From contig QPGO01000087.1 of the NCBI GenBank assembly GCA_008632985.1, forward strand, positions 248,001 through 312,000: a DNA stretch of 64,000 nucleotides, written 5' to 3'. Origin of the DNA: Psammoneis japonica (Eukaryota). A program made the translations under genes and the position numbers. Under the pieces are notes generated by a model that saw only the letters and a program-made list of their open reading frames with translations, had not been told where the DNA came from and did no database searches. How positions within the stretch are numbered: position 1 is the stretch's first letter; each line of letters starts with the position of its first letter. This document shows, piece after piece, positions 5,379-64,000 of this stretch.

Positions 5379-5706
5379 ATCGAGTTTTATCGGCTGGTCC
5401 AACGAGTTCAAAGTGAGCTTCAGAAAACGAAGCCAAATTGCTGTGTACCGGCAAACCTCAGCGTTCAGCGTGTTGCAACTCTTCAACAACTCAACAGCAT
5501 GTCATCGCGCCATGGCCTCAACACGCTGCGCGCGCTACCGGTACCGGCATGGTGCGTCATGCGTCTCATTCGACTCAACATCTTTTCTGCCTTTTCTTGG
5601 CCTCTTGTTGCCTTCTTGTTCGCCATGAGCCATCATACTCAACACCGCAGAGCAAACGCAGATCGCAACAGCAAGCTAAAAAAGCACGCCAATCAATGAC
5701 AGCTTA

Positions 5707-6720: not shown

Positions 6721-7109
6721 GAACCTTCGCTGGCATCATGAGAGATTTGGGTGTGTTTCGATGAAATGCAAAGAGCGACTTCTGTCAGCTGGCTAACTCT
6801 TCTCTCTCTAGTAGAGAGAGAGGTTACCTCTGCTGCTAGCTAGAGCCACTTCTAGAGTAGAGCTCTAGAGAGCAGCGCTGTACAGTAGAGAGACATCGGC
6901 ACTTCGTTCGTACAGTAAAAGCAGTGGGGCGGCATACGACGCGACGGGCAGACCGACCCGCGATCTGTTTGGTCGTGTTTCCAGTTTTGTGTTTTGGGTT
7001 TGTTCGAAAAGGTGCCGCGAAAACAACACAATCCGTGAGTGACCACAACATTTCACAATACAAGTATTGGACTGCGGTCAAGACAAGATAACCTCAGATC
7101 AGCAAGAAT

Positions 7110-11579: not shown

Positions 11580-11814
11580 TTAGCATTTCTCTTTTACAAA
11601 ACCGTCACAACCCCACTGTCATGAATGGCGAGATCGACTGGAAACTAAAATGATGAGTAAAAAAAAAGAGTCAAAAAGATCGCGATCTTTTTGCGATCTT
11701 CACGAGAAACTACTGCTTCACCCGATGATGCGCAGTTGCGCGCCATTGGGATTTGGTGTCGTGGTGGCACTTTTTGTTGTCAATTTGCATGTTGTGCTTT
11801 CCGAAGACAATGTA

Positions 11815-19250: not shown

Positions 19251-20467
19251 CAAAAAGTAAAAAGCTCTCAATGGCCTGAGGCATTTGCGCCATGTTCGCA
19301 GATCAAAAGCCATTCAGAGCATCTGACCATGACAACACAGATTGACCCAGTTGACGCTGACAACTCATGTGCCAACATTGTCGATCAACCATGTTTGCAA
19401 TTTTCAACATCCGATCAAATCTGTGTGATTAATCTGTCCTTCATGTGCGCCCACAATTGCAACATGATCAACATGTGCAACAACATGCAACTGTGATGAA
19501 TGTGAGTGTTTCTTCCTGCGCAACAACACACAATGCATTCATTGCCAAGAAAGGAGCAGCCAGCAATGTTGCCACCTCAGCTGGCTTGTCACTCCGGATG
19601 AAAATGCATGAGCAGCTGGTGTTTCTTGTGAGTGGATGAGATGCTGCAACAAGCACAAGATTGTGCTTTGAGGAAGCCCAGCAATGTCTTGGCGTTGCAG
19701 AGCAGCGCAGCTCTTTTTGGAGAGCTCTGCTCAACATGGTGCCAACAGGAGGGTGGTGCTCTGCCACAAGTGCAGTGTGCAACATGAGCAAAATTTTCCT
19801 TGTGCTCAAAAATGCACGTCAGAGGAGCATGTGCTGGAGCAAGCACAAGGTGTGTGTTGAGGAATGGTCGGTGGGTTGGAGCATGTCTGGTGGTGTGGCG
19901 GACAGCTCCACAAGGTGCACAATGACAGCGAGCCAGACCAACTCACAAGCAGAAAATGTGCTGTCAAGATCTGTGCCCTGGCTCTTGGCTCTCCCAAAAC
20001 ACACATCATTTTTGGGCCCAACAGTTGCATGGTGTGGTGGTGGGCAGCAAATGAGCATGGGGCCCTTCATTTTGGGAGTGCACCCCAGTCTCTCTCAATC
20101 ATGTTGGGAGCCAGCAGTGATGGCAACGAAAGGTTTGGCACTGCGTTCTTGCTCCGTCGGTTTACGACAACCCTTTGGTTGGTAGAGTTTGTGCTTGCAG
20201 TTGCAAATCAGACACTTTGCACATTGTGTGCACACAGTGTGACATCGGCAGAAGATGACCCATGGATTGTCATCATGAGCGAGCTGCTCTCTACTGGCAT
20301 TGCGAAGAACGCACCGGCACGCACATTACATTCGGTGCCGGTGCGGTCCCGCATGCATTGGACAGCACTGTAGAGTTCGTCCGATTGGGCTTAAATCTCA
20401 TTAAACATGGGCTTAAATCCTCGCATGTCTTGTGTCTCCTCAAAGCATTCGCGCGGTACGATGATCG

Positions 20468-22009
20468 ATGATCGCCTCACATAATCCACGAAATCAACAG
20501 CAGCAAGCAATGAGAACGATGCGAACCTCTCTCGCTGTTTTGTTGGTCTTGCTCCTCCTTACAGGCGTGTGTTGGGGAGAAGCTACAAAAAGGGATCTAC
20601 ACTGTCGATACACTGTCGACATCGAGGAAGAAGTTGACGAAGGAGGTCCCCATGACAACGACGGTGGACCGTCGAATGACACTGTTGTGTGCATTGAAAG
20701 TTCCATGGCATCTCATGTGGACAAGATGGCCGAAGTGTTTGTGCTTGAGGTGGATGGATGCCACCAAATTGGGAGAGAGTGGTCGACAGATGGGATCTTC
20801 TTCAGTCAAAACAACAAGAAGATCTCACCAACGGTCCAGAATCACATCATGGCAAAACCAAAAATGTTTCTTGACGGCGAGCTCACTTTCGAAAAGAAAA
20901 TTAGACTAGAAGAAAATGCTGCTGGACACGGGCGATGCTTGGTGCACAATGTAGATGCGACCAAAAAGATTAGAAAAAAACGGAAGAAGAGAAGGACGAG
21001 AAGGCGCAAGTTCTCTCTGAACAACAAGGGGCATTGCAGAAATTGTCTTGCAGATGATGCGGATGCCAGACGGAGAACACTGAAATCTGGATCTTTCATC
21101 CGTAACATGATTCACAGTGTCACGTTTGAAACCTGGATGAACATTCGCATCCAAGAGGTGATGCAAGAAGATTGCTCACTGGTGACAATTTTCAGCACAA
21201 CCTTCTCAAGAGTGGAGAATGGACAAGTGACCCATGCAAGTGGTCCGTGCACTCCTGTAGAGCAAGAGGCAGATCTAGAAATCACTGCTTGCGGGACCAT
21301 GTCACCATCACATGCGCCGACAATCGGCCAGCCAGAAACAGAAGAACCATCAACAACACAACCAACATTCCCACCGACAAAAGGACCGACGGAGTCGCCA
21401 ACAACATTGCCCGCAACTGCACCGACGACATCACCTGCCATTGTCTCGGTCACGTCACCAAAAGCTGCTCGTTGTTCCTCTGAGATTTCAGTGAATGGGG
21501 GTTTTGAAGACGGAAACCTGAATGGTTGGACACAGTTTCCATCTCCGGGCAGCACCCAGACTGTTGGCAGTGGTGTCCCTTTTAACCCCACCGAGGGTAA
21601 TTTTGCAGCAAAAGTGGCAAACCCTGCGCGGGCCAGCGGGAGTGTCATCAAGAATGCCAATCTTGGCATGGGTCTCGTGAAAGCAAACGATCCCATTGCC
21701 GTTTCGTTTGACGCCCGCGCGGACGTGCTGGGCCCTGGCGCCTTGGTCTTTGCCGAGTTTTTCTCCGAGCTTTCGGGTGGCGGGACATCGAGAGAAGAAA
21801 TTCTCGGAGGAGGACCAATTCTTTCCGTGTCTAATCCTGGCAAATGGAAATCATTCTCTTTTAGCACGACTGCAGGAACAGACGTTTCAGGTGGTGTCAC
21901 ACTCCAATTTGTCGTTGTAACCGGAGGAAACCAGAGAAGTAAAGCCACGGCATGCTTTGACAATGTCAGTGTCCGAGTCGGTCACTCTTGTAGCAAATGG
22001 CAAGGTTGA
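20468..22009 (+). CDS. Secreted protein with Pro/Thr-rich linker and C-terminal carbohydrate-binding (CBM4/9-like) domain; open but TpA-hypermutated
   Basis: Signal peptide, CRNC..DD.D.RR motif, PTxxPT linker, VNGGFEDG...GW...FDNVSV domain. Only 1 Tyr in 513 aa. Confidence 0.75.
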   Translation: MIASHNPRNQQQQAMRTMRTSLAVLLVLLLLTGVCWGEATKRDLHCRYTVDIEEEVDEGGPHDNDGGPSNDTVVCIESSMASHVDKMAEVFVLEVDGCHQIGREWSTDGIFFSQNNKKISPTVQNHIMAKPKMFLDGELTFEKKIRLEENAAGHGRCLVHNVDATKKIRKKRKKRRTRRRKFSLNNKGHCRNCLADDADARRRTLKSGSFIRNMIHSVTFETWMNIRIQEVMQEDCSLVTIFSTTFSRVENGQVTHASGPCTPVEQEADLEITACGTMSPSHAPTIGQPETEEPSTTQPTFPPTKGPTESPTTLPATAPTTSPAIVSVTSPKAARCSSEISVNGGFEDGNLNGWTQFPSPGSTQTVGSGVPFNPTEGNFAAKVANPARASGSVIKNANLGMGLVKANDPIAVSFDARADVLGPGALVFAEFFSELSGGGTSREEILGGGPILSVSNPGKWKSFSFSTTAGTDVSGGVTLQFVVVTGGNQRSKATACFDNVSVRVGHSCSKWQG

Positions 22010-24225
22010 GTCGAACTCGAGCTTTTGCGATGACACGAAAACTGTGCCGGCCAGAAATGATTCCGCCACACAGCCATGAAAAAGAAGAACCAGCGTTGAG
22101 TGAGTTCGATCCCCTTGCGGTAAAAAGCAAGCGCACTTGTGCAATGCTCCGCAGTCACTTCCTTGCCCCTCTCAATGCTGCCAGTGCCCAATTCGTGCGC
22201 TCTACCGCATTTCCTTCGTGAGTCCACCTGCATCCTCTTGCGTCGTCCGCTTTATCTTGCAAACTTGTTTCTTGCCGGCAATGTGGTGCGTCACTTTCGC
22301 AGCTTGAAGAACGAAGCCTCCAAGTCCCTCGAGTTGGATTGCATCGAACCTCGACTATGCAGGCTCATTGCAGGCATGGGTGGGGCTGCACAGAGTGACT
22401 GGTAGAATGGATCTCTCAGCCGCTCCTGCCAGACACGTTTTAGTTGGATCCACCCTTCGAATGACTTGATCATGGAATCATGGCATCGCACACATCCTCG
22501 CTGACAGGAGCAACTTCATTTCCTGATCCACTGTCATCGCCTTCTTTCCTTCTCTTGGCGACTCTTTGCATCAGACCGAATTTCTGTTGATCGCAACAGC
22601 TCTCTGGGGCACCACTTTTGACAGCCTTGAACTGGCCATTGGCAGGTGCCTGCCGCTCCGTCTTCTTTGGTTCCACCTCCTCCCCCCTCTGCAGATGCTT
22701 TGTCCATTTGACTCGATCGCATTGCCAAGCACCGCGTCCCTCGCGCGCAAGGACGAAATGATCACACCGTTTTGGTTTTTGTGCATGAGGAGGACGTTGG
22801 ACAAGCATTCCACAAATGTGAAAAAGAGCTGCAACTCCAAATCGTAGTGGGGTCGACGCTGGATTTCCAATGACAGTTCGTGTCACATGAGTTGTTGACA
22901 CATGACATTTATGTCGGCCTGGCATTCGAGTGTAGATTCAGCTGTCTCCTGAGGATTCCAAAACAGCTCACAATTGCACGCCATTCGTTTTCTTTTCCCT
23001 CTTCCAGCACTGACTGAGGCATGGAGCGCTTGCTCGGGAAAATCCGTCACACCGCAGGTTGCGGTTGACCATTTTTTGGGGACAAACTTTGACATCCGCT
23101 CCATGGCGCCTCAACATGGATGTGGTCATTGACCAACGCCGCCAGTGCAAGTGAACAAGTGAGTTCAGTTGAGCGCTGGCATGCGCCGTTGATCTTGAGC
23201 GGCTTTTTTGGCATTCATTTAGTCGTTTGCTGTCAAAGCAAGTAAAATGATTGCAAGCGACAACAAAGCACAAGATGCCAACAAGGACCTCATCATCATT
23301 CTTGATGCATTGTGTAGCTTTCGCCTAACATGCGAAGCTCTTGCCAAAGACCAAAGATCTTGCAAAGATTGCAAAATATCGTTCAATTGATCAACATACA
23401 TTTACTTAGAGTCAATATAAAACATTTAACTGTTCAAGTCCGACCGTTAAAAGTATTTAGCACAGTCGACTTTTCCTTCCACGACCAAATTGTCAACTCG
23501 CAGCGCGGTTACAGTAGCTATGATATGAGGCTACGACTAGCACAATGTGCAAAATAGGCCATAACGAACTGAATATTTTGTATTTTAATATATAGTTAAT
23601 GTCTGGATGATCGGTATGTAAAATGACTGCACATGACTCCTGCTGTAGAATTTGTACCAGTCTACGTAATTAGGGCTCTACGAACTGAAGTCATACAGAA
23701 ATGTCTGGTGTTAAGTAAATTCAAATGTCGGAGCCGCCAAAATGGACCGAAACGCCGGCCACGTCTTTTAATAAAACATTCGAACTTGTTTATTGATTAT
23801 GAAGCAGTCGGAGTTGAAAAAGTAATATCAAAATTTGAGTTACAATTTGAATAGGAAACATTCAAAATCTTCTAATTGTGTTGCGAGTATCGATGTTTGA
23901 GTACAAATTGTATGGTTACATCTGTAAAAATGCCTAAATACTTGCTAAAAACCGTTATCGTTAAATATCGATGTACAAAAAAAGCTATACGGGTGTTCGG
24001 GACGTTTTTTACAGTTCACATTGTGCTAGGCGTAACTCCATATGACTGCTGGCGCTGTGAGCTGTGACAAAAACGAAGAGGAAGGAGGAAGCAAGAGTGT
24101 GTGGGTCCGTGTGTGTTTGTTCTCGAGCCGCTTATCAATCGGTCGTTTCGCCACTAACTATTCGTTACCCGGTTTGATTGATCAAAAAATTGACAAAACG
24201 CACAAAACAAGAATATAACACAACT

Positions 24226-39396: not shown

Positions 39397-41396
39397 ATGG
39401 GCTTTCAAAACGCACCATTCGCCGTCCTTTTTCTTTCACTGGTGACGGTTTCCCTGGCGTACGCCCCACTTGCGGGTGTCAAGGTCAAGTCCGTATCGTC
39501 GGGCGAGAGTGTCGACTTGGGAGAGTATCTTAGTAGTAACAACAATGATCGAGCCATGCTGGTGTTGGGCACATATGCTGCCGATTTTAATGCTATTGAA
39601 TACGCTCAGCGTCTTCGCTACTACACTCCCAAGCTTCGACAAGAATGCGGTGTCTCCAAGTTTGGATTTGTCCTCAATTGCAAACCCGAGGCAGCGATTG
39701 CCCTTGCCGATGAAGCCGACCTGGATACCAACGAGGTGGAGCTCCTGGTAGATCCGACCGGAGAGGCGGGAAGAGTATTTGGAGTGGAACGGGGATGGAG
39801 GCCTGACGACAAGGAAATGTCACCCTTTGTTAAGCTCTTTGGCATGCTGTGGGGCTTGGGTGCGTGGGCGACCTTGCCGGCAGTCATTAGCGGGTACATT
39901 GGCAATCCCTTTTACGGACAACCGTGGATTCAAGATGCGCTCGCCGTTGGACAAAAAAAGGGGCGGTGGCCGGGTAATGCCTTGGAAATTCCGACGATGG
40001 AACCGTTGTGAACAAATTCAGTGAATTGCCTCTTGTTGGTGATTGGAAGAGGCGACCACTCGAGTTGGCAACGCTGCGACTCCAAAACATGATTGGTATT
40101 TCTTTGAAACGATGGAAAGAGTTGGCTCCCGATGAAGAAGCGCTCAAGGCTGGTGTTTTGACCCAGTTGGGTGCCTGCATTGTGGTGGATTGCATGACGG
40201 GAAATGAACTTTATCGATGGAGAGATCCTGGAATTTGTGCTGTTAGCAACTTTGAAGATATTATTAAAGCATTGAATAAAGTTCCCGATGATGGATCAGA
40301 CGCGCCTATGCCAGCGACTCTGGAAACACCCGCCCCAGAGACTGAGGAAACAGTTTCGACTCAGGAACCACCTACCGCAAAGGCTGAGGAGCCAGTGGTG
40401 GAGGTAGACGAGGCCAAAGCTGATGTCTCTATCCCCTATGACGCCGCCGCTCGTTTGGCATACGAGGCAAGTGACAAATCTGTAAACTACGATGACTTCA
40501 AAACTTCGTATGAAGCTGCAGCGATTGCGGATGTCATTATGAAGAACAAGGGACCCGAGGTCGAAAAGAAAGAGGAAACAGTGACTATCGACGTCTCGAT
40601 ACATTATGATGCCGCCGCTCGTTTGGCATATGAAGCAAGTGACAAATCTGTGAATTACGATGACTTCAAAACTTCGTATGAAGCTGCAGCGATTGCAGAT
40701 GTCATTATGAAGAACAAGGGGCCCGAGGTTGAACAAGACGAAGAAGCTGTGAGTGTTGACGTCTCGATTCCCTATGATGCCGCCGCTCGTTTGGCATACG
40801 AGGCTAGTGACAAGTCCATGGACTACGATGCGTTCAAAACTTCCTATGAAGCTGCAGCGGTGGCCGATGTCATTATAAAAAACAAAGGGCCTAAAGAGGA
40901 AGAAGCTGTAAAGGTTGACGTCTCAATTCCGTATGATGCCGCTGCTCGTTTGGCATACGAAGCTAGTGACAAATCCTTGGATTATGATTCATTCAAAACA
41001 TCTTATGAGGCTGCAGCGGTGGCCGATGTGACTGCCAAGAACAAGGGACTCGAGATTGAAGAAGATGCTGTGAGTGTCGACGTCTCGATTCCATACGATG
41101 CAGCTGCACGTTTGGCCTACGAGGCTAGTGACAAATCCATGGATTATGGTGAGTTTAAAACGGCGTATGAGGCTGCTGCTATAGCCGATGTGATTGCCAA
41201 AAACAAGGGACCCGAGAAGGAGGAGAAGGACGAAGAGGCAGGAAGTGTGGACCTCTCGATTCCGTATGATGCCGCCGCTCGTCTGGCTTACGAGGCTAGT
41301 GACAAGTCCATGGATTATGATGCGTTCAAGAAAGAGTACGAGGGCCGAGCTGTGGTTGATGTCATTGCTAAGAGGATTGCAAAGCTAAACAAGTAG
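39397..41396 (+). CDS. Plastid-targeted AhpC/TSA-like (thioredoxin-fold) protein with six C-terminal tandem repeats; apparent 1-nt frameshift near 39990
   Basis: Signal peptide + [52 protein letters not shown]. Frames join as [14 protein letters not shown] if one T is restored. Confidence 0.8.
40420..41385 (+). repeat. Six ~55-codon coding repeats ([45 protein letters not shown])
   Basis: Directly visible in translation and DNA, period ~160-170 nt. Confidence 0.97.
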
Positions 41397-41502
41397 ATGC
41401 TAGACTATTAGAAGAGAGCTTTCTAAGCGCGTTAATGCTAAGAGATTGCAAAGCTAAACAAGTAGATGCTAGACTATTAGAGAGAGCTTTCTAAGCGCGT
41501 TA
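41367..41502 (+). repeat. Near-perfect ~68-nt tandem duplication spanning the stop codon and 3' UTR
   Basis: gctaagag(g)attgcaaagctaaacaagtagatgctagactattaga(a)gagagctttctaagcgcgtta occurs twice. Confidence 0.95.
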
Positions 41503-41942
41503 GTGTGTTTGACCGAATGCCACCACAACATCGGATGAATGCGTTTTCGTTGTTGCAAGGGACTTTAGACATGATGCTTCCGCTTCCACCAACTCTATTT
41601 GCGCCATGCGTGCGCGCGTGGCTCGTTTAGTGTATAGCATGGGCAACTAAAGTCGATACGCAAGACTACAGGAGCGAAAAAAACGCGCCGCAAACGACCA
41701 ACACAACCATGATGTTGATGGTTTGAAACGTTTTGAAAAACGAATCGATACAGCACCCGTGCCATTGCCACACGATGACAAAACTTGCTTTTACCACGGG
41801 AATGCCCCTTCTTCGAGCTTCACACGGTACGTACTTTCTACGAGACTTTTGTACCAAAGACTGATGATAGATGCGCACCGAATCTCCTTCCTCGGTCGAG
41901 TCGCCATAATTTTCAGAATCGCTTCTGGTTCACAGGTCAACC

Positions 41943-43163
41943 ATGAAAGTTATTCATAGCATCCTTTTCTTCACGGCCGTCGTCTCTACCATGAGCACTG
42001 GTGCCGTCGCCAACCCTCTTCCTGCCTCGCTTGTCAACGCTGCAAAGCGGGGTGCAAGCTCGTTTGCGATCAAGGCGACCGAGACTGTTGCAACGATCCG
42101 TAAAGACATCCAAGGCAAGTTTATGGCTGCGATCACTCCCGTGGATATCGAAAGCATCTCCAACGACTACAACAACATCGTCAGCGATGCCGCTCCCAGC
42201 ACTTCGCCCTTTGACGAAACTCTCGTCGACTCGAGCTTCTGCGTTTCGTTTGATGACGCCGAGTCGCCCAACAGTTGGGTCCAACAACTCCTTCGTAATA
42301 CTACCCCCACGATTGTACCAGTGGAAGCTTCAAACACGTTTTGCGTCTATTTTGAGCATGACAATGGTGATTCCATCGCCGCCAGTCTCCCGCAAATCTT
42401 CTACAACAACACTCCGCTTCGAGAACCAACCGCATCGTCACTCAAGACCAGCACTTTTTTGGAAATTGTTTGGGAAATCAAGTCGGAAATGGCATCAGAC
42501 ACGTTCAGCACGGTTCTTTTGGATATCAAGTCAGGAATGGATCGTATTTGGAACCTTGTAGACGACATGTCGACACGCTTTGTCACGGAATTGCAGACTC
42601 AAGCGACCGTTTTGCAATTGCGCAATACGACTACTACGCTACTTCAGAAGCCAACTTTGTGGAAGCCCGATGATATCGAGTTCGGGCCGAGCAATTGGTG
42701 GAAGAGAGTCGAAGATGTGTCAAAGTGGGTTCAGACTAGCGTTTCGCAAGGATTCAGGACGACTGCTGCGTCGTTGGGACAGAAAACCTTGTCGACGATC
42801 GACGACTTTGGGTTGAATGGGCGCAAGTGGTGGAAGAGAATCCAAGACTTGTCGGAGTTGCTTCAAACCAGCATTTTGCAAGGAGGCAAGACGGCTGCTA
42901 TGTCGTTTCGGAAGCCCGACGAATTCGAGTCGACGCTTGACAATTGTTCGAAGAGAATCAACGACATTCAGGCTGCCGTCATGAAAGACATCAAGACGTT
43001 TTCGCGGCTTTTAGAACCCATTTCTGTGAAAGAGGTCATTGACAATTTGTGGAAAAGAGTAGACGACGTGTCCGAGCGGATTGCATCTGTTTTGGGCTTT
43101 TTACGAATCTCAACCCTGCAAGTGGGATGGAATGCAACCGAAGCGGTTGGGAGTCTCGGTTAG
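41943..43163 (+). CDS. Hypothetical secreted protein with degenerate WKR(V/I)xD(V/L)S helical repeats
   Basis: Intact 406-aa ORF with signal peptide and repeats WKRVEDVS, WKRIQDLS, SKRINDIQ, WKRVDDVS. Confidence 0.7.
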   Translation: MKVIHSILFFTAVVSTMSTGAVANPLPASLVNAAKRGASSFAIKATETVATIRKDIQGKFMAAITPVDIESISNDYNNIVSDAAPSTSPFDETLVDSSFCVSFDDAESPNSWVQQLLRNTTPTIVPVEASNTFCVYFEHDNGDSIAASLPQIFYNNTPLREPTASSLKTSTFLEIVWEIKSEMASDTFSTVLLDIKSGMDRIWNLVDDMSTRFVTELQTQATVLQLRNTTTTLLQKPTLWKPDDIEFGPSNWWKRVEDVSKWVQTSVSQGFRTTAASLGQKTLSTIDDFGLNGRKWWKRIQDLSELLQTSILQGGKTAAMSFRKPDEFESTLDNCSKRINDIQAAVMKDIKTFSRLLEPISVKEVIDNLWKRVDDVSERIASVLGFLRISTLQVGWNATEAVGSLG

Positions 43164-51785: not shown

Positions 51786-52073
51786 GCTAGAGCCACTAGA
51801 GCAGCAGCAGCGCTTTTCAAAAGGTCCCCGACGAACGACGAAGCATGACGGAACCGACCTGAGCTGCGTCGGTTCTCAGATGAACGCATTGCACAACACC
51901 AGTGGAGAGCTGCAGTTTTCTCAATGCTTCAAACTAAACTAATTACTGATCATCTACTCTAGTGCCCCTCTCTAGAGAGTTTTTGCTGTGCTGGTTTGAG
52001 AGTTTGTTCTGCTTCACATCACTGCTGGACCGGATTCCGAAAGTGCCGGCAACAGATTCAATGGCTGCTGCAG

Positions 52074-54420
52074 TCACGGGTCAACGTATTCGCCAATTGT
52101 TCGGTAGAAGGCGCTCTTGAACGGGTCACTGAGGATCTCCTTGGCAGCATTCAGAAGCTGCGAATACTGAAGAGCCCAACAGCTCAAACGGTTGTGGTCC
52201 GTGTGGTATCGAAGACTATTAACCCGCCAAGCAGTCGTGACATCTAGAGGCGTGGGATCATCCCCTAAACCCAAGAAGCCTTTGGGTGTCTGGAGTTTGA
52301 TGGTATGGATGAGGCCTGCCAGAAGAGAATTTTTGAAGTTTGCAAGACCATTCAGGTTTGAATGGTCAAAAAGACCGAAGGTCTTCAAAGGGGAATGGTC
52401 GCAAAGGTTCAGCAGGAGGATGTAATCCCACTGGGCCTCTCGGTATCGTTGAACTGCAACAAGATGAGTCACTCGTGCGTATACAACTCGTGCCGTGAGG
52501 CTTGGCACACCCTCCCATGGGTGAGCCTCCTGCTGCATGATAGGACAGATTTCGTTAGACAAGTCAAGTGCCTCCTGATAATCCGGCATGCGCCAAATGG
52601 CGGAACTCTCGTCCTTCCGAAAAAACTTGTCGGCCTTCTCCTGGACATTTGCATCGTGAAGAAGGCTTTCCGTGGCTTCTAGAAGACGGCCTGCCGTGCT
52701 GGACCAATCCGACCTCAAGAAATGAGGCCAGCGAAGCATTTTACACACCTTCAACTCCATTTGAGCATGAGAGGCGTCACTCTGGAGTGCCTTGGATGCA
52801 ACGTTGAAACGGTTCTGGAAAATCTTGATTCGCGCAAACTCTTCGAGTCGCCAATTGTCCCAATCTGGCTCGCGGTCGTCGAAATACAAGCTAGAGGCCT
52901 CCATGGACAAAAGAGACTTGGCAGTTTCCAACTTGTTGTTGAAGACCAAAGCCCGGACAAGGGACTTGGCAAGACAGGAGTTGCCGAGGTGTGTCGCAAA
53001 ACTGTCCTCATTGGGTTGGACGCTGATGCAAATTCTTCCGCGACACCCTTGAAACGATCGAAGTCAGCCATGTCCCCGACAACTGGCCCATCCCAATGCT
53101 CCACTCGACGAGCAAAATTCTCTAGCACTCCCACAACGCATGTCCAGTTGTTCCCGTCTGCATGCAAGCAGACCAGCTTGCGAAGTACAACAGTCGAGAA
53201 ATGTAGAGAGGTGAGCGATTCCATCGTTGGCGCGCCGTGCGAAAACACAACATGATGAAGGTCGTTCAATTCACGCTGTGTTTTGAGGTCCCCTTTTCCC
53301 TCGCCAAGCTGGTCGTCAAGCCAAGCTTTATGTTGAAGGCAGCTTTCTTTGTCATCCTGGGCTAGAGCACACAAGGCGAGGCACAGCTAATTCGGTGCTT
53401 CAGTGAGCTTTTCAACGACTGCACCTGCAAAAGGGCCAGACACTCGTTGGCCGCAAGATCGTGCAGGGAAAGCACGCGCAAAGCTTCGGCCCGGCACAGT
53501 CGGGCCTCGTGATTGTCCTCGTGTTCAAGACACCGGCTTGCCACACTGACGAGAGTCTTGGCAACGCCGCACATGCGATCATCCGTGGCCTCACAAAGCT
53601 CCTTGAAATGGGCTTGGGTGTTCTCTAGCTGCTCAAGCTCCTCAAGGAGAGCGGCAAACCCATTGGTGACTGAAGTGTTGGTCGGGGAGATGCCAGCACC
53701 GGTCGAGACTTCCAACGTGTCGTCGGCAACCGAAGGCGTGACGTCCAACTTGGCAGGAGCAGATGTGTCTTCTGACTTCTTGGTGGTGGCAGGAACGTCA
53801 TCCATTGAGGTTGAGGCGACAGCGGCAGTGCAATCTTCGGTGGGGGCTTCCATCTCCTCGGTGGGCTCCTCAACATCAGAGACCACATTGCCGCGAGGAT
53901 TCGTGTGTTGTGGGCATCGATGGGGGCTTCGTCAGTGGCGCTGTTGGTCTTGGCTTCGGCGGCAGCATCTTCCGAGTCAGTGGGGGCATTCGTGAGGTCG
54001 AGCCGCCAGCATTCTCCGAGTCGGCAGGGGCGTTGGTCGAGTCGGCATCGGGAGAGGCACCTCCTTGTGGCAAATCATTGTGCGCTTGATTGTTGGTCTC
54101 GCCGTTGATTCGACGACATGGATGCCAACCTTTTTCATTTTGTTTGCACGTGAGTTGGCAAAAACGAAAAGTCTGAAAAAGGTGTTTGAAGCGTTGCTTC
54201 AACTTCTTGTCCACCAGCCACGCTTCCAGGTTCTGGCAGAGTTCGTGGAATGCAAATGCTTCGTCATGTGATTCCGGCCTTGGAAGAAAGCCAAGCTTTC
54301 TCTCCAAAGAATCTCCATTTCATCTTGGGTGGGACCTCGACCTTTTTGTTTGGAGGACGGGGTGACCAGTGGCTGCTGTAAAGCTCGCACAGATTTAGCG
54401 GTGCCGTGTGACCCATGCTG
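52074..54420 (-). pseudogene. TPR-like + C-terminal J-domain gene, frameshifted and progressively TpA-hypermutated toward its 5' end
   Basis: FLGL.......V..AWR..SLRYHTD.N.......SQLLNAAKEILSDP (J-domain, HPD->HTD). Helical TPR-like segments upstream and several frame changes. Confidence 0.65.
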
Positions 54421-55099
54421 TCCTTCAACTCACAGAAAACCAATGCTCGACGTTGCCATTTCTTGAGGACAGACAATGGCAATGATGATGGCGGAGAGCC
54501 AGGAGGAGGGCCGCGGTGTGCACGAGGACCATGATGATGAGCGGGGGATGGCGAACCCGGCTGCTGCTCATGCGGACGCCGCCGCTGGCTCTGTCGAGTG
54601 CTACGACGACGAGTGACGGACCGAGTTGTTCTCTTTTCCATGGTTCGTTGTTGTGTCCGGCAAGTCGGGACACCTTGCCAAGAGCGCTGTTTCGATCTTG
54701 TCGCTCTTTCTGTCGATCTCTTTTGAGGAGACAAGTTGAAGGTGGCACCAACAAGAGCAACGAAACAATGACTGTGAAAGTGGAAGAACGACAGCCATGG
54801 CCACAGCGAAATCTTTCGCTGATCCTCTATGAATTTTCAAATTTGGCGGTCCGGCGCGCTGCAGTTGGCAGCACATGCAGAAGATTCATCGTTGACAACA
54901 AAAATGTCGGTAAAATGTCGTTGAAAAGGCCCGCGACATTTTTTGACTCTCACACTCACGAGCCGCAAACTTCAACAAACTCAATGTGTTGGGCTACGTT
55001 CAGTGGGATCGTGCTGGCCGGGGACCAGCAGGAAGAGCGTGCGTGAGAACAATCATCGCTTGCCCAGTCGAGTTGCCAGTCCAAGCCTGGTGGGCCCCA

Positions 55100-58000
55100 G
55101 CAATGACAATCAAGTCCAGAACGAGCGGGACAAACAACAGCAACAGCTGCTTCTTTGCAGGGGCATCATTGGCTGTTGCTCGCAATGAGCAGTTCAAGAA
55201 GGAGTTTGCCAGATGGCAGGGAATGAACCCTGCAAAACAAGCAGTGCAGGAATCTCACAAGGTCAGCGAATCCCCTGCAGATGATCTTCTGAGATGACAG
55301 AAGGAGACTCATTTGAATGCTGCAAATCACATTGAATGACCAAGAATGGATGAAGCAAAAGAGGTGTCAGATTGCACAGGTGTGAGCCATTGTCTGTTCA
55401 ACAAATGCAAGGAGCAAGACACAGAACAGCCACAAAGGCCTGCTGGAAGCACATTTGTCATCAGCTGTGCGGAAGAGAAGGAAGCAGATCTTGGAAAAGG
55501 TGACACATGAATCAAAAGTGCGAGGTGTGGATGCATTCCAGCTCCAGCTGGGTGATGCCTTGTGCTGCTGAGCTGTGACAACATCAACAGTTTTCTTTAG
55601 ATCACACCTGTGCTGCACACACACAATTCTGCATGTGACTTTCTATGAAATCATTTCATGCTCCCACTTTGCAAAGCCAAACACTTTCTGTTTTCTCCTT
55701 TTGTGAAAATGAAAATTGGTGGCTGGGTGTGTTCTTCAATGTCTGCAGAACTTGTTGTGGCAAACTCTGAATGACGTTTGCAAAATTGCCTCTTTTTCTG
55801 TTGGCAATCACTCACATGTTCATTGCTTGATGATTTCACTGGTGGTGTGGAGCTTGCATGTGGAATTTCATGGGCCCAATGTCACACACAGTCCCACCTG
55901 GGGCTGGAACTCATCTGTGGCAGGTCTGGGATTTTCTGCATTGCAATTTCCTGGGACCTGGGGACTGTGGAGGCAGCCAAAGACGTGGCAGTGGTCTGAA
56001 GCATGAGATGCAGATGTGGCATTCATGAAGAAAGTCAATGAGGAGCAAAATGATGTGGAGCTAGCCCACAAACTTGTCAAGCTGCTTGCCCAACATTGTG
56101 ACTCCCAAGACACTCGAGTCAAGGAGGACACATGCCCAGATCAGTGCACTTCTGTCCTGCCAGCACTCACCCACCAGGTGAGCTGCATGCCATGGACACT
56201 CCAAGTGACTGTCTTAAGAGCTGCCATGACAAGTCCTGTGCTGCTGTGAGGAGACTCATGTGATCAACCAATGTTCTTTGGCAGGGCAAGCTCTAGAATG
56301 CAACCCTTGCAAATCAACTTGATGGAGTGAGACTTCAGCTGGTCCTCTGGAACATTCTTTGGCAGGTTGGCCTGCACTTTGTTTGTCATCAGCCTTGCCG
56401 CCACTGACCCATCTTGCATGCTGTGAAGGTCAAGAAAGCTGCTGAATGCATGATGGAAATCACAACAAGCACAGTGATCATGGTTGGGGACTTGCACCAT
56501 GGCATGTTGCCAGATGGACTTGAGTTCCTGCCTGGTTACATCAATGACTTCAAAACCAGGGATCCAAGACCACTTGCTGCATTGTTGGAACTTTGCCACC
56601 CTGGCCAATCACACAATGCAAAAGAGTCAATTGGAGTCACCTCTGCATGAGACAAGACAGATGATGGAAATCACAAGCACAGTTGTCATGGTTGGGGACT
56701 TGCACCATGGCATGTTGCCAGATGGACTTGAGTTCCTGTCAGGTGTCACATCAATGATTTCAAAACCAGGGATCCAAAACCACTTGCTGCATTGTTGGAA
56801 CTTCACCACCCTGGCCAACTGCACAATGCAAAAGAGTCAATTGGAATCACCTCTCCATGCAACAAGACAGCTTGCCAGCCAGCAGGTCATTGCTGGTCAC
56901 AAGCTCCTGGAACAACACTGCACATGTTTGTTTTGACAAGAGACTGGTTGAGTTTGTCTCTGCACTCTTCTGCCCTGCAAAGTGGCTGGCAGTTCAACTC
57001 ATCCTTTTTAGAACTGCACATGTCTGCATGCCACATGTGACAGCTCTCCTTCCAACTCCTCAGACTGGGGAAAGGTGTCCAAGTTCTTCTTTGATTTTTC
57101 CAAAGCACCTGAGGACTGACATTGTCAAGAGGTGCTGCAGCAGGTCAGAAGAAGGCTCCACAGCACCACCCATTTGAAATTCAGGAATTGGACAATCCAC
57201 AGGCCATTGTGCAAACATCAGAAGAAGGGCAATCACACAGTCACCTGTGACATGCTCAGAGATGTGACCTCCACCAAAGTGGGGCCTTTTGTGACAGTTT
57301 TCTGGTGCAAATCAAAAATCTCAATGGCAGCATCATGCCCTGAGCAGTGCTTTTTGCTTCCCCAAATTTCAGAGTTTGGCCCATTGTTGTTGCAGAGGGT
57401 CAAATTGAAATTGCACATGGGACAGCAGAAAGAACATTGTCTGGTTGAACTGCAGAGTGTGACTTTGGAAGGGTTGCAATTGCCATCATCATCTCATTGA
57501 TGAATGAATGCAACACAACACATGCTGACTCTTCACTGCACTGCAAAATGCAGAGTTGGTGCTGCCGCAGATCACAGTGCTGTTCCTGCATTGGCAAGGT
57601 TTTGCAACTTTCTTTTCTTGAAAGCTCACACTCAAGTCTGGAAAAGTGCACAGCACATGCAAAAGATCAGCTTCAAAAACTCATCACAGACATCTGCACT
57701 CCTGTTGCCATTGGGGGCAGGAAAAGATTGATGAGTTGCCGGGGAGGCAAAAAGAATGTGGAGCTTGTTGTGCCACCTTCATCTGATTTGTTTGTTGATG
57801 AGGAAAGACCACAGCAGAATGCAGCTGGACAGCTGCTGCCACTGACAAAATCAAAGCTGGATGACATTTGTTCTTGCAGCAGGGCACCACAAACAAGCAA
57901 AGCCAGGGCAGGACTGGCACGTCAATCTCAACTGCGATGTGTTTCCACTGGCATTGCTGCCATGCCCACAAATGCAGCATCCATCATTGAAGTTTATTCT

Positions 58001-60950
58001 TGCAGTTGTGTGAGCCAGATTCAGAGAACCATTTCCAATTCTGCATTTTTCAAGCTTGTTTTGCCCTGCCATCTCTGTCATCTGTGATCCCTTGGTTCTT
58101 GAAAAATGCCATGGCAGCTGTTTGCGTGATGAGTGGGTTTGTCCAGAGAAAGCTGTTGACTGGTCTCGTGAAGCACTGGTTGACACCCATTGTTGCATGC
58201 CATGCTTGTTTTGCTCCTCACATGTTTCTTCCTTGACAAAAAAACCTCTGCACTGTTCCCACTTTGTCAAATCAACTGCTTCCAGCATTCCATCAGTGCT
58301 GCCCACCACCAGGCAGTTTCCGTCCAACTTGTCAAATGATGGCATCAATCTAACTTGTCACATTTGGTCAGACCCCAGGTTTCAGTGCAGTTGTGCCAAG
58401 CACATGATGATGCCTTGTCTCTGCGCCAGATGCAACCCATCTCATTTGCTGCCCATCCTGACTGCAAGTGTCCCAAGTCTAGAATGGAGACAGCACCATC
58501 ATCACCAACAGCGACAGCCAAAATTCCATTGCTGCAGTCCAGTCTGTGTCACACACAACCCCAGCATGTGGAACTGTTGCATTGCCAAGCATCTCAGGTT
58601 TCCGCAAGAGAACACAAAGATCAAAGCAAAACAGTGGCTTGAGAAAACAAAACAATTGATTCAATGGAGTCCATCACTTGTGAACACACCCATCAAAATG
58701 TCTTTCTTGGAACATCCCTGCACAGCTTTTTCACACTGTGGATCAACAGAGCACAAAAAGTCATCTGTGAAATGCACCTGGATGGCTCTGGGCATGCAGG
58801 GGTTGTTCAGATGCAGCACTGACAGATGGTGTGTGTGTTGTCAGTGGCATTGTGTGACAGCCCTTGTTTCCTTTCCTGTTGAGTGACACCCAATGGACAG
58901 CAAAATCAAACAACTGTTCACAAATGATTGCACGTGTGTCTTTGCTGCCCACCATTGCTGGACATGTGCCTGTGGCATTTTGCAATGCTGCTTCACATTT
59001 GCATTCAACATCGTGAATGCCTGAACAATTGACAATTTTTTCTGCAGGGTGTGGCCAGTTGCACAGCTGCGTTGAACCCAGATCATGTGCATGACCAGCT
59101 GGCCCTGCCCTGGCCAACTTCACATGTGTGTGTGCACAAAAGAACTGCTGAGGACCAGCCAAATGCGCACTTTTGAGTTCTTTGGTCTCATTTTGCGCCA
59201 AATGCACAAAAATGCGCCACTGCACAGAAACACAACAGGATCCTGCATGGTGTCACACTGAAATGTTGCATGCACTCATCATTGTGAGCGGGCAACTGCA
59301 GCTGCAACAGAAGCAATTGGCCCTCCACTCCACAGTGGAGACAAGAAGTGACAGCCACTGAACTCACCATTGCATGCATTTACAGCTGTCACCTGCTCAA
59401 GCAAGTGACAGCACTTGCTGTTCAGTCACTCAAATGTGCAATCTCAAGAATGTTGCACAGGATCTTGGTCACGGTTGTTGAAGCTCACAGCAGCTGTGGG
59501 GCCCAATGCCATGCTTCCACGTGCAATCACAACCCCCCCAATTTTTGCCAAAATGCATTTCCAGCCAACTGATGTTGTGCCAATGCAAAGTTCTTGACAA
59601 CTCATGGGGTTGCAAGGAGAGAGTTGCATCAGCCAGTTGCAGAGCTGTTGCTGAAATTTGTCCCTTGCACTTTCCTGTGCAATGGAGGTCATGCCCCATG
59701 AAAAGCTGCTTCCATTTTCAAATGCCCAATGCCAGGAACAGCGTGCACCTGTCACATTCTTGCAAGACACTGGTTTGGAGCACATGAGACCAAAAATGCT
59801 TGCATCTTGGGTGTTTCCATGTCTCCAGCTGACAGAGGGTCAAAGTCCAGCTAAACAAGTGGGTCACAGCACAGGATTCAAGACTCATCATTCAGGGCAC
59901 AACAAAGGGGAAAATTGAACCTTTCTCTCAACACCAAGGCAGTCTGGACAATGACATTAAAGCACAACCCACTTCATGGCTGTGCTCCATTTGTGAGTCA
60001 TTGCTGACCTCATGATGACTGTGTTTCACCTCTTTCATGCCAAAAATGTCCTTGAGTCCAGTCAAAGCCAACACAAAAATTGTTCTCCTGAACAGTTCAC
60101 AGTGCAAATTTCACATAAAAAAAAGGGTGTGGACACTTTCTGGACATGGACACAAGGAGACATGCCACACAATCCACAAAGATTCGCTGCAAAAGCCACA
60201 CTTTTGTGCTTTCACATCTCTGTGATTTGTCTGGAGTCTAAAGCAGACATGCACAAGGGAGAACTTCTGTTCACAAAAATTTTCATTCTGCAGGACAGCA
60301 GCATCAATGCAATTTTGTCACTGTGGTTGGCTGCTTTTTTTTTTGAACCACGCGCCAAGAATTTGTCAACAAAATCAATTCTCTTTGTTGTCTCAACAAT
60401 CTGACTCCCTCCAAATCAAAAGCGCAAGGGTGGAACCACTGAAGGCACTTCCTCAAAGTCTCAAAGTGTTGTTTTGAACCAAACAGTTGCTCTGTGCATG
60501 TGAACCCTGGCGCAGTGTCCCTTGCTTGTGTGATGATGGGCCAGAGCTGTTCTTGAGCCATCTCACTCTTGGTCCAAACAAATCCAACCTCCTGCACCAG
60601 CAATGTCTCACACTGCCACAACTTGATTGTTCATTGGTTTTTCTTGTGTTTCCATTGGCTTTGACTCAGCGGGTGCTCAAAACACAGATGGTGTTGGGTG
60701 CATGAAGAATCAGCACATGATGTGGCATCATGAATGTGACCAAAACAGCATGTTTCAAAACATCCCACCAAAATGCTTGTCTCTGATTGGACAATTGCAG
60801 TCACATGATGCATGGAGTTAGACAGAGCAATGGCTGCAAATGTCCAAAAAAGATGATGGTTCAGGCACCCATTGAAGCAACGCAATTGTTGCCATTGCAG
60901 TCAAAACATCAAAGTCATTTCAGACATTCACAAATGTTGCTTGCATCATC
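55100..60950. mobile_element. Heavily hypermutated, probably repeat-derived sequence, family not identifiable
   Basis: Almost no TpA or CpG over ~6 kb, coding-like remnants and an internal tandem duplication. Confidence 0.55.
56450..56860 (+). repeat. ~200-nt tandem duplication (period ~211 nt)
   Basis: atgatggaaatcacaa...gagtcaattgga.tcacctct at 56450-56648 and 56661-56858. Confidence 0.95.
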
Positions 60951-61629
60951 GAGATTCAAATCATCTCCTCTCTTCTCACAAATCTGATCAAAACCGATCG
61001 TTGAGATCTCTCTTCAGTTTGCACTCATAATTTCTCCGTGGAGAACTTTGACAACGACTTCTGCCATTCTGTTGCAACCTTGAGCTCTTGCTCTCACTGA
61101 CACAAGCTGCTTTGTTGCATCTTTAGTGGTTGCGAGTCCCAACATCGCACAGCGTTCGTTCCACCACCGGGAAAGCGCTGTCGACTGGGTCATCAAAGCT
61201 TCCATCCACCACCAACGTCGATTTGTTCGTTTCAACCAAACGGCCGCATTGTTTCACGTTCTGAACGACACCTCCAGTCGATGTCAGACACCACCTACGT
61301 CTCCACTAGCCGCCATCATTCGCTGACAAGCTGGCAGTTCACAACGCGTCAAGGACTCAACCTGCAATCTCCAACGCGTTCCGAATTTGAAACCACAACG
61401 TCCGTGCGTTTCAAACCAAACCCGGATCGAGTTCCTTCGACTCTCCGAGTCCCCCATCCCTCAAGAACAGCTCCTCAAGTGACGTCGCTGGTCACTTCTG
61501 TTGCACCATTGATTGTCGTAGTTGTTTGGCACGGTTCTGCAAGTGTTTTGACTCAAGAACGTTCCATTGCTCCATTGTCAAGTTGACTGCGTACATTTGG
61601 CACTGCAGCCACACAAAGTCATCTCTGCC

Positions 61630-64000
61630 ATGACGAGTGCCAACCCCTCTCCGCCCAAGACTCCACAATCGGGCACTCCTCCGCCTCCGCCTCCTCCTGC
61701 GGTTCCACAGAATCCGGCGCCGACGTCGCCCGGTTCACAATCTTGGACACAACCAATTCGTGGCGGAACTCACAAGGAACATGGTCGCTGCATGGGTGGA
61801 TCCCCGTTGGACGATGACCATCTCCCAAAACTCAAGCGGACCCATCGCTCTACCAACCAGTCTCGCGACAAGAAGATTCTTCCACACACAGAACGCAATC
61901 TCCGAGACGCTCGCAACAGAACCAACGTCATCAAGTTCAACGGAAACTTGGAGCTTCCCAACGGCAAGACAAATGAGCTCGACAAGGACCACTTCGTTCA
62001 ATCGGTCCACATGTTAGTTCACGAACATGGAATGGAACATTTCTTTGTCATGAAGCTCGGAGAGAAGGTCGTAGACCTCTTCGATCACCTCCACAGCTTC
62101 ACCGTCGACGAGGTCATTGCTGAGTGTGACGAACGCGTGAACAAAGCGACAGACGATTCGGCATACGATGAGCACGAGCATGACGACATCAACCTTGCCC
62201 GTCTCATCGTCGAGTCTCGTGTCACTCACCAGTTCCGCGAGAAAATTGAAACCCAGTTTGGCCATCGGGACCTCTTCCGTTACTTCCCTGGCCAAGTTAT
62301 TTTTATGATGGCGCTCGAAACCTGCAATGCCTCCGCCGTGCATGATGTCGCTCAAGCTTCTGACGATTTTGACGCTTTGACGCTTGATTCCTGTCCTGGC
62401 AAAGACTTTGCCGAATTTGCTGCCGAAGCGCTCTGTCTCACCAAGATCCTCCAAACAGGACATGCGCTGCCTGTCTCTCTCGGGTCCGATCTCCTTCGGA
62501 AGTGCTACAAGACCTCTGGCGAAGCGTTCAATCAAGCAATGTACGCCAAGTTAGATGACGTGACAGCCATGGAACGGAAATGTCGTTTAACGGACCCAGC
62601 GCCACTTGCCAAGGACAAGGATTGCTTCACTCTCGGTCCAACCGCATGCACCACATTCCTTCAGACGAAGCATCGCCACTTTGTCACCAATGAGGGCTGG
62701 CCTGGTCTTTCCACCAAGCTGCCTCAGGGCAACCACACTGAAGGCAAGGGCGCCTGCAATGCTTGCGGTGCTCTAGTCCATTGGGCTGACGATGAGTCAT
62801 GTCCCAAGTGTGCGGAACGTCAGCGCCTCAAGAAGCTTGCCCGTCAAAAACGGAAGGGTCAACAGCCATCAGGTGCTCCGTCACCTCCCGCTGCTGCTCC
62901 TGGTGCCATTGCTCCAGCGAATGCACCTGCGGATAAACAAGCAAAATTCAAGGAACTGTTGGCAAACGAGCCTCATCGTTGCACCCGTCCGGCCGATCTC
63001 AATCAAGCGGTCGTGAACAAGCATGGGTCGACTGCTCACTTTTGCACCAAGTGCACGTGCCGTCACACCGGTGTCAAAGGGTTTTACACTGGACACAAGG
63101 ATGCCGCCCATGCCAACAAGCCACCCAAGAAGGAACAGCCAGATGCCAATCTTGCATCCGTTGCTGATCCAGACTCTGGCGTGCCGGCTGGACCACCAGC
63201 TCAGACCACTCCCGACCCTTCGTCCACCAAGTCCGATGAATCGTCCGACGATGATGAGTCTCCCGTTTCTGAGGATGAACCAGTCTGGACCGGGGCCGGG
63301 ATTCATTGCTGTCCTGTTGAGGATGCATCCGATGATGCTGCTCCCCTTGCACGAGTCTCCGTCCTTTTGGGTCCTTCCGTCCAGAGGGAGCGGCCAGTGA
63401 TTTTGGTTGAAACAGTTGAACCAGAAGACGCTGACGATTTCAGCGAGTGCTGCGACACTTGCGACAATTTGGATTGGGGTGATTCTGTCATCCTCTTTCC
63501 GGCTTCGATGTTCCCAAAGGAGCCTCCTATCTTGGACGATCCACCACCTCCTGTCGAGTCCACTGACCTTGATGACGAGTTCTACGATGCAATCTCTGAG
63601 CCTGCTCCAAATGTCCTTGACCTGGAACCTCAGCCTGCTCATTGCTGGCTCTGGTCCCTCCTCAAGATCCCCATCTTCTGGCTCTCTGCACTTCTTTGGG
63701 AAGGCATGCTGTGGCTGGCAGGTGCTGGTGGTGATCCGCCGCCGCCCTCGCATTGCTGTCGCCGTCTCAAGCGCAAGCCCACTCCATTCAGTTGCCCGTG
63801 TTGGTGGGGCGTGATCTCATGTGCGATTGCGCTTTGGCTCTCCGTCTGTCTTGGACGAGCCCCGCCCCATCCGAGCGTTCCCTTGCAGCGCCCATGCTCT
63901 CAGACCCACAAGGTTGTCCAGGCTCTTGACGATCATGTCGTCTTGACTCCTGGCACCCTGCTGCAGTGTCATCATTTGAAGATCAAGCAGTTCAAGCATG
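61630..64000 (+). mobile_element. Ty1/Copia (CoDi-type) LTR retrotransposon gag(-pol) ORF, open to the window edge; presumptive LTR/leader upstream from ~61000
   Basis: 790 uninterrupted codons from ATG 61630 (not in the ORF track): PGQVIFMMALETCNAS, LTLDS(C)PG.DF.EFA.EAL, TG(H)ALP, GWP, zinc knuckle CNACG..VHWA....CP, FCTKC. These match my recollection of diatom Copia gag motifs; pol is not in the window. Confidence 0.8.

Follow-up and report, generated by a model that had tools for sequence, protein, structure and literature searches.

In ascomycete fungi, repeat-induced point mutation (RIP) changes C to T in duplicated DNA, mainly at CpA. Its effects are more TpA, a lower GC content, and new stop codons. 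Methylated transposons decay at CpG by deamination of 5-methylcytosine, with a gain of TG and CA. In animals, retroviruses and retrotransposons are edited by the APOBEC3 and ADAR enzymes, the substrates of which are single-stranded cDNA or RNA, so that only one strand is marked. A process directed at TpA is known from one chlorarachniophyte, Bigelowiella natans. In mutation-accumulation lines of this species, 231 of 302 nuclear mutations were in two integrated viral regions, and 230 of the 231 were A>G or T>C (Mettrop et al., bioRxiv 10.64898/2026.01.13.699255). Here, we analyze a 64-kb window of eukaryotic DNA (the whole stretch of 64,000 nucleotides taken from contig QPGO01000087.1, numbered from 1) with a TpA-poor segment at its right end, 60951-64000. 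We consider it probable that this segment carries the leader and gag from the 5' end of a Ty1/Copia-type long terminal repeat (LTR) retrotransposon, rewritten in place by a host process that converts TpA to TpG or CpA on either strand.

According to the main text of the B. natans preprint, all of the GC-biased mutations fell on TpA, at ~6e-7 per site per generation, a rate some 1000-fold over background (10.64898/2026.01.13.699255). The same text describes 124 clusters of windows in which TpA is low and CpA plus TpG is high, and 324 low-TpA coding sequences that are enriched in reverse transcriptase and DDE domains. The targets were integrated nucleocytoplasmic large DNA virus (NCLDV) and virophage DNA, which was single-copy, and the authors interpret the process as defending the host against foreign DNA. 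As the agent they propose an adenine deaminase of the ADAT2 type that acts on DNA, and RIP is named as an analogy in the Discussion. The terms CpG, Copia, LTR, and tyrosine do not occur in that main text. A full-text literature search found no report of the same TpA process outside B. natans, and a term search of PMC12344493 found no TpA content.

The segment at 60951-64000 contains 22 TA dinucleotides (observed/expected ratio [O/E], 0.14) and 193 CG (O/E, 0.88), with TG at 1.37 and CA at 1.31. The background, 24001-52000, has a TpA O/E of 0.56 and a CpG O/E of 0.99, with TG at 1.19 and CA at 1.16. This corresponds to a loss of ~75% of TpA and ~11% of CpG. At the host ratio, 85.8 TA would be expected in 61001-64000, where there are 22 (Poisson P, 2e-16). 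The open reading frame (ORF) at 61630-63999 and the part upstream of it (60951-61629, forward strand, 6 TA) both have a TpA O/E of 0.14, with CpG O/E values of 0.86 and 1.01, respectively. A preliminary description of this DNA had noted plentiful CpG here, in agreement with these counts. It had also placed an abrupt switch near 60950-61000, at the edge of an adjacent core that lacks both TpA and CpG. This core (core B, 55181-60950) contains 16 TA (O/E, 0.04) and 35 CG (O/E, 0.11), with TG at 1.96 and CA at 1.88, and the CpG switch at its right edge lies between 60881 and 60995, as described. Another core (core A, 11760-20150), a decayed Ty3/gypsy-type LTR element on the reverse strand, has a TpA O/E of 0.05 and a CpG O/E of 0.16, with TG and CA near 2x.

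Overall, the seven TpA-poor blocks of the window have TpA O/E values of 0.04-0.15, with TG and CA at 1.25-1.96. Three of them (~8 kb in total) are TpA-poor with a CpG O/E of 0.80-0.88, two are poor in both dinucleotides, and no kilobase of the 64-kb window is CpG-poor with normal TpA. The loss of TpA is therefore separable from the loss of CpG, as the preliminary description had claimed. A single dual-specificity deaminase, acting on C and A at pyrimidine-purine steps, could in principle cause both losses. It would fit the two cores, which lost TpA and CpG together and ended as TG and CA (O/E, 1.8-2.0), and the lack of any CpG-poor block with normal TpA. ADAT2 enzymes that deaminate A and C in DNA are cited in the B. 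natans preprint. However, the three blocks that lost TpA and kept CpG would require a second condition, relatives of the element in other hosts lose CpG alone (see below), and the 230 A:T>G:C changes among the 231 B. natans hypermutations were all on TpA, with none reported at CpG in the main text of that study. We therefore regard a single enzyme as decidedly unlikely. Instead, CpG loss would be a second, independent process, presumably deamination of 5-methylcytosine in methylated repeats. It would have acted on the older cores at 55.18-60.95 and 11.76-20.15 kb and not (yet) on the Copia copy, which may have kept its CpG simply because it is not methylated.

A stop-free frame of 816 codons occupies 61552-63999. 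Its last 790 codons, from the ATG at 61630 (forward strand), constitute the gag-like ORF, which runs past the end of the window. Over 1000 first-order Markov simulations, each of 3 kb, the longest ORF averaged 202 codons and reached 439 at most. The frame is therefore not due to chance, because it is longer than the longest ORF in all of these composition-matched simulations. Frames of 200-300 codons do arise commonly by chance at this composition, and a 311-codon antisense frame is present. The stop triplets of the region, counted in all frames, are 57 TGA, 7 TAG, and 3 TAA.

The predicted protein (P0001) is homologous to P0002 (718 amino acids; 36% identity; E value, 2e-82) and aligns to residues 11-514 of P0003, a transcript-derived protein of 2299 amino acids (33% identity; E value, 4.4e-64). 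The Pfam domains of P0003 are, in order, Pol_BBD (1040-1119), gag_pre-integrs (1189-1240), SH3_retrovirus (1448-1517), and RVT_2 (1802-2036). After its gag region, P0003 has a protease barrel, pre-integrase, integrase SH3, and RVT_2, which is the Copia order. An exhaustive homology search with P0001 returned 419 cluster representatives at an E value of ≤0.001, with a top identity of 48%. A Pfam scan of P0001 returned no family at an E value of ≤1 and no gag match. By homology, the frame at 61630-63999 is nonetheless assigned to the gag part of a Copia-type polyprotein. The same identity had been given in the preliminary description, and the match to the N terminus of P0003, with its Copia domain order, supports it. 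Diatom Copia elements are known as "CoDi." Among the nearest Atlas clusters of a further homologue, P0004, one has zf-CCHC in 41% of its members, and two were recorded mostly from Bacillariophyta. When the whole 64-kb window was searched by tblastn, P0002 and P0003 matched only at 61753-63222, which indicates that the other TpA-poor blocks are not of this gag family. A locus scan with P0001 alone as the query found no related loci.

Residues 66-400 of P0001 (61747-62751, forward strand) form a conserved domain that is predicted to be capsid-like from the alignment and from an AlphaFold2 model (40-sequence alignment; pLDDT, 89.6; pTM, 0.78). Foldseek found no PDB match to the model at an E value of ≤0.001. 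VIA-align, run against 48,161 chains, ranked the Drosophila Copia capsid (8vvw_A) second, with a Z score of 7.8 and 175/184 residues aligned, although a Z score below 8 in helical proteins may reflect a common arrangement. Other matches were PNMA2 (Z score, 7.5), the endogenised Ty1 Gag CA-CTD (9rxy; 7.4), PEG10 (7.3), and dArc, Arc, and MOAP1 (5.7-6.8; dArc, 6.8 and 6.4). The clustering of capsid entries among these matches is supportive only, but it is consistent with a retroelement capsid-like fold in the model. Adjacent to this domain is an intact CCHC-type zinc knuckle, CX2CX4HX6C (residues 402-417; 62755-62802, forward strand), which aligns with the knuckle of the family. The family form is CX2CX3-4HX4-6C, and several members also have the X6 spacing. 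The strict pattern CX2CX3-4HX4C is shared by 23 of the 153 family members but is absent from P0001. Upstream of the frame, 60951-61629 is probably the 5' LTR and leader. In run X1, a public sequencing run that contains this stretch, the summed contig depth was 387 in the bin at 60822-61222, compared with ~100 over the ORF and ~53-56 in the single-copy flank. This fits an LTR that is more repeated than the interior of the element.

A recount of the ORF agreed with the preliminary description, which had reported 790 open codons with only ~6 tyrosines: there is no stop, and Tyr occurs exactly 6 times, with His at 4.7% and Cys at 3.9%. The Tyr share of P0001 (0.74-0.76%) is the lowest of the 153 family members, for which the median is 3.56%. 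In 15 other long ORFs of the window, Tyr ranges from 0 to 5.3%. The lowest values are in ORFs 5782-6735 (0%), 20465-22009 (0.19%), and 41910-43163 (0.72%), and the first two of these also sit inside TpA-poor blocks.

The 153 family members were aligned with MAFFT, with P0003 cut to its first 1100 residues. There were 452 columns with at least 25 other sequences, and in 11 of them Tyr was present in at least half. At these 11 columns, P0001 reads, in order, C, H, H, Y, H, F, C, H, C, H, and E, which amounts to five His, three Cys, and one each of Tyr, Phe, and Glu. The eight His and Cys codons are CAT/CAC or TGC/TGT and start at 61789, 61819, 61843, 62173, 62392, 62461, 62623, and 62671. In control columns, P0001 kept the conserved residue in 9/9 cases for Phe, 7/7 for His, 7/7 for Cys, 9/9 for Asp, 15/16 for Pro, 14/16 for Gly, and 21/28 for Leu. 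Across the family, His plus Cys amounts to 0-5.7% in 10 of the 11 Tyr-majority columns; the exception is column 374, with 38% His. The family's own alternative to Tyr is Phe, at 5-46% in 9 of the 11 columns. Among 132 other members with at least four of these columns, the mean His-plus-Cys share is 5%, and the transcript-derived P0003 has Tyr at these columns. The Tyr of the YD motif (residue 205), which is the most conserved one, survives in P0001. Six peptides had been proposed in the preliminary description as places where an expected Tyr reads as Cys or His. DSCPG, TGHALP, DKDCFTLGP, and TKHR do fall in Tyr-majority columns, the column of HEHG is 49% Tyr, and ERKCRL faces Tyr in both P0002 and P0003 in a three-sequence alignment. 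Only TKHR is ambiguous, since 38% of the family has His there. The pattern is what would be expected if conserved TAY codons became CAY (His) or TGY (Cys), with the frame staying open and the protein most likely losing its function.

The five changes from Tyr to His are T>C on the sense strand, and the three from Tyr to Cys are A>G on the sense strand. The occurrence of both indicates a strand-symmetric change that affected the DNA itself rather than the transcript. This bears on the possibility that an ADAR-like enzyme edited the RNA of the element from A to I, with the edits fixed by reverse transcription before integration. The target is indeed a retroelement, and the preference of ADAR for a 5' U would give UA>UG, as pointed out in the Discussion of the B. 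natans preprint. However, RNA editing predicts A>G on the sense strand only and therefore only Cys, whereas His outnumbers Cys five to three. Furthermore, CA and TG are both raised, single-copy DNA at 52.7-55.2 kb that is not a retroelement has the same signature, and the signature builds up between LTR-like repeats after insertion (see below). RNA editing is therefore very unlikely indeed. We favor a host process that would make A:T>G:C transitions at TpA only, on either DNA strand. About three in four of the TpA to be expected at the ratio of this genome would have been lost to it.

Comparisons between copies show that the TpA change happens in place, after insertion. For these comparisons, we counted CA<->TG doubles, which are differences for which an ancestral TA (or CG) must have been resolved separately in the two copies. 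In core A, two LTR-like direct repeats (12417-12741 and 18101-18415; 79% identity) both start with TG. Their 41 differences include 6 doubles where 0.65 was expected, and none of 5000 permutations reached 6. A 210-bp tandem duplication in core B (56450-56870), the copies of which are 90% identical, has 2 doubles where 0.15 was expected (P, 0.008). The third comparison was between the window and run X1, which is the only public run with this stretch (share, 0.79); it is one sample, possibly from a strain close to that of the assembly. Among the 40 listed of 100 differences, at least 5 were doubles (0.10 expected; 0/5000 permutations). At least 4 more sites have TA in X1 and CA or TG in the window, and one of these, 61207, is inside the Copia element. 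The other listed differences are at least 10 exchanges of CpG with TG or CA, 5 of them among the few CpG left in core B, and at least 16 of other kinds. At least 3 of the listed doubles are at 54.3-54.7 kb, for which a TA ancestor is likelier because that block is CpG-normal. Left of 53384, a position already within the TpA-poor zone, the X1 contig over 52000-53569 is free of substitutions. This suggests that the whole TpA-poor zone is hypervariable between strains or culture lines. Between the window at 52000-64000 and the X1 contigs, 77 of 95 places of change were transitions, and the first among those listed was at 53384.

Run X1 also bears on whether the composition is an artefact of assembly or base calling, in which silenced DNA carries a modified base at TpA that is called wrongly as G or C. 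The sharp edges of the depleted blocks could be those of a modification domain. However, the sequence recurs in the X1 contigs, which show 0 differences over 61459-62311 and 1-6 differences in each of five contigs over the core. These contigs also depart from the window at ~100 other positions and are therefore no copy of the assembly, and among the listed differences X1 has TA at 4 sites only. We consider an artefact exceedingly improbable.

Is the loss of TpA a trait of the gag family? Metagenome contigs were scanned with a four-sequence alignment, and 21 loci (L001 to L021) were found to encode relatives. All 21 have a TpA O/E of 0.44-0.77 and a CpG O/E of 0.06-0.62 in the matched part. They show the reverse of the window copy, which indicates that TpA loss belongs to this host and not to the family. 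Elsewhere, the gag family appears from these loci to undergo ordinary CpG decay. The 21 loci are on low-GC contigs (36-46% GC).

These relatives also speak to an explanation without directed mutation, in which selection against TpA or UpA (by a UpA-cutting RNase or a TA-specific nuclease) or the composition of a donor genome produced the depletion. Host genes of the window are themselves TpA-low (O/E, ~0.5-0.6), which would fit this explanation. However, the O/E falls to 0.04-0.05 in the decayed noncoding cores, on both strands, and in the gag frame it is conserved Tyr codons that were sacrificed. In addition, 21 of 21 relatives elsewhere have ordinary TpA, and copies diverge by CA<->TG doubles. 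Selection or donor composition is therefore very unlikely, and directed change of TpA by the host remains our preferred reading.

The other TpA-poor blocks differ in content. Immediately left of core B is a block (52701-55180; TpA O/E, 0.12; CpG O/E, 0.87) in which the only domain trace is the end of a weak DnaJ-like ORF. Its depth in run X1 is 52.6-75, compared with 53-56 in the adjacent flank, and it is therefore single copy. Thus, TpA loss does not need multiple copies. Core B itself is old decayed sequence. Its 42 ORFs of 70 or more amino acids lack any credible Pfam domain (two rows, with E values of 0.004 and 0.047, are at chance level), and it has no tblastn match to P0002 or P0003. At 55609-56009 (loose ends, 55775-55830), the summed X1 depth is ~24,568, compared with ~55 nearby, so a short piece there must be part of a repeat with hundreds of copies. 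Core A retains a reverse transcriptase RNase H remnant on the reverse strand (15582-16180; PF17917; E value, 4.2e-7), and the two cores are not related at the DNA level.

The block at 20610-23300 (forward strand; TpA O/E, 0.15; CpG O/E, 0.80) covers most of a gene for a predicted secreted protein with a signal peptide (ORF 20510-22009, forward strand), which has 1 Tyr in 515 codons. The first ~100 bp and the promoter side of this ORF have normal TpA. The C-terminal third of the protein, which is CBM_4_9-like, shares 37-52% identity with 63 database proteins, among which those named by organism are all bacterial (Bacteroidota, Planctomycetota, and Gammaproteobacteria). These matches make horizontal acquisition of the gene possible. 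The Tyr test was uninformative for this ORF because the median Tyr of its homologues is 1.3%; there were 2 Tyr-majority columns, and both read Phe. A small block at 5551-6800 (TpA O/E, 0.07) has an intermediate CpG O/E of 0.46 and holds a 317-codon frame on the reverse strand with 0 Tyr, 5.7% His, and 6.0% Cys. Its sole match is a weak one to DUF1440 (E value, 0.001). A Pfam search of 58 ORFs from the other TpA-poor blocks returned only MIP, the weak DnaJ, and the weak DUF1440.

The window as a whole is gene dense and eukaryotic, with 19 stop-free frames of at least 250 codons. Whole-domain matches include a Lon protease, a short-chain dehydrogenase, an amino acid transporter, and a copper monooxygenase. 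An aquaporin (MIP) gene in two reverse-strand frames (10465-10869 and 11070-11579, with a gap of ~200 bp) is mildly TpA-poor and ends at the left edge of core A. Neither this gene nor the genes at 24-52 kb are TpA-depleted as the blocks are. We considered whether TpA loss might leak from methylated cores into their flanks. This idea was mostly dropped, because both signals stop together at 11.76-11.81 kb, beside the aquaporin gene. A leak from core A is also opposed by a stretch of normal TpA (20163-20609; 14 TA) that separates it from the next block. In DNA of normal composition, host ORF 39978-41396 has tandem repeats of ~170 bp at 40421-41505 that are 75-80% identical.

How, then, should the long open frame be read? 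Enumeration of codon pairs confirmed an earlier statement that TA>TG/CA change cannot create in-frame stops. It never turns a sense codon into a stop, and it removes stops (TAA>CAA and TAG>CAG or TGG). By the same enumeration, CpG decay makes TGA from CGA. Because the TpA process cannot close frames, openness is weak evidence of youth, activity, or selection. This matters for the possibility that the element is alive, belonging to a lineage that evolved or tolerates nearly TpA-free sequence (for example, to escape a TpA-directed defence) and that inherited its His and Cys residues from an active master copy. A living element would explain a frame that exceeds all 1000 simulations, the large retention of conserved columns other than Tyr, the intact zinc knuckle, and the Tyr kept at residue 205. 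The summed X1 depth over the ORF, ~2-5x that of the single-copy flank, also fits. However, Tyr became His or Cys, the mutationally nearest residues, and not Phe, the family's alternative (column 374 is an exception). In 10 of 11 columns, the family tolerates His plus Cys at no more than 5.7%. Furthermore, noncoding, decayed DNA alongside shows the same TpA loss, and an open frame is expected of TA>TG/CA change in any case. We consider a living element unlikely. Given His or Cys in 8 of 11 columns where Tyr or Phe is conserved, this gag copy is probably nonfunctional, and the preliminary description of it as "probably dead" is supported at that level. Its two further proposals, a recent insertion and a TpA loss that runs faster than CpG decay, are plausible from the state of the locus, because only TpA sites changed while other conserved residues were kept; the second describes that state rather than a rate.

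Several observations weigh against rewriting of a dead element by a host process or limit what can be claimed for it. Tyr 205 and five other Tyr residues survive and other conserved residues are intact, as they also would be in a living element. Since even the nearest relatives do not exceed 48% identity, no date can be put on the Tyr losses. The window includes neither the 3' LTR nor sister copies, from which one could read how old the insertion is and whether His and Cys first appeared here or in an ancestor that was still mobile. CA<->TG doubles can stem from CG as well as TA ancestors, and the X1 counts are partial (40 of 100 differences) and come from one run of one sample. Finally, what looks like an intact gene for a secreted protein lies in the TpA-poor block at 20.6-23.3 kb, so targeting of foreign DNA only is not established. 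The affected blocks include the Copia element, the gypsy-type remnant, and a gene with a bacterial-like CBM domain, and a host enzyme may be directed at foreign or mobile DNA.

In its broadest form, our proposal is that the TpA-directed DNA-editing defence of one chlorarachniophyte is at work as well in a second lineage that is unrelated to it and intron-poor (probably a diatom). In that lineage, it would be near saturation on LTR retrotransposons and single-copy foreign genes, active on the scale of strain divergence, and independent of cytosine methylation. We put this forward tentatively, judging its chances to be a little below even. If the host is not B. natans, TpA-targeted hypermutation is a recurring eukaryotic genome defence and not the oddity of a single species, and its target range extends from integrated giant viruses to retrotransposons. 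Erased stops would leave long open "zombie" frames. Annotation pipelines will call TpA-hypermutated copies intact, as their frames cannot close, and counts of intact transposons would be inflated. The separation of TpA loss from CpG or methylation decay would provide two independent clocks or marks for each transposon copy. Cheap diagnostics would be available for any genome: CA<->TG doubles between copies and, as a simple detector at the protein level, Tyr>His/Cys at conserved aromatic columns.

How does the locus compare with known systems? With Ty1/Copia Gag, the predicted protein shares homology to the N terminus of a Copia-order polyprotein, a two-lobed helical model that may be capsid-like, and a CCHC-type knuckle. 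It differs in having no Pfam gag match, in its CX2CX4HX6C spacing, and in its His and Cys residues at 8 of 11 conserved aromatic positions. The gag region is also unusually long, with ~1000 residues preceding the protease in P0003. With RIP, the window shares dinucleotide-specific transitions, made at the DNA level, that riddle mobile DNA in place and may spare host genes. However, TpA falls in the window, GC rises slightly, no stops are made, and a single-copy block is affected. Decay of CpG with a gain of TG and CA is shared by cores A and B and by the 21 environmental relatives (CpG O/E, 0.06-0.62). It is absent at 61-64 kb, where the CpG O/E is 0.86-0.88, compared with 0.99 in the background, and decay of the methylation type is therefore not what changed gag. 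APOBEC3 and ADAR likewise cause deaminase-type hypermutation of retroelements with a preference for neighboring bases, and the 5' U of ADAR resembles the TpA context. In the window, however, both strands are marked, and integrated DNA keeps changing.

The B. natans process shares with the window a change restricted to TpA, a fall in TpA matched by a gain in CpA plus TpG, and an effect on single-copy DNA. B. natans genes average 8 introns of 182 bp (PMC13746701, Table 1), whereas the window has its 19 long uninterrupted frames, and it is therefore probably from another lineage, perhaps a diatom to judge by the taxa recorded for the gag family. The two also differ in depth and in kind of target. 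The NCLDV region of B. natans has a Rho of 0.45, whereas the blocks of the window are deeper (O/E, 0.04-0.14). The B. natans data are for viral DNA with measured rates, whereas the window offers the composition of a Copia element and old LTR-element remnants. By this analogy, the kind of process that appears to have acted on the window is the one already described in B. natans, here much more saturated and on a retrotransposon.

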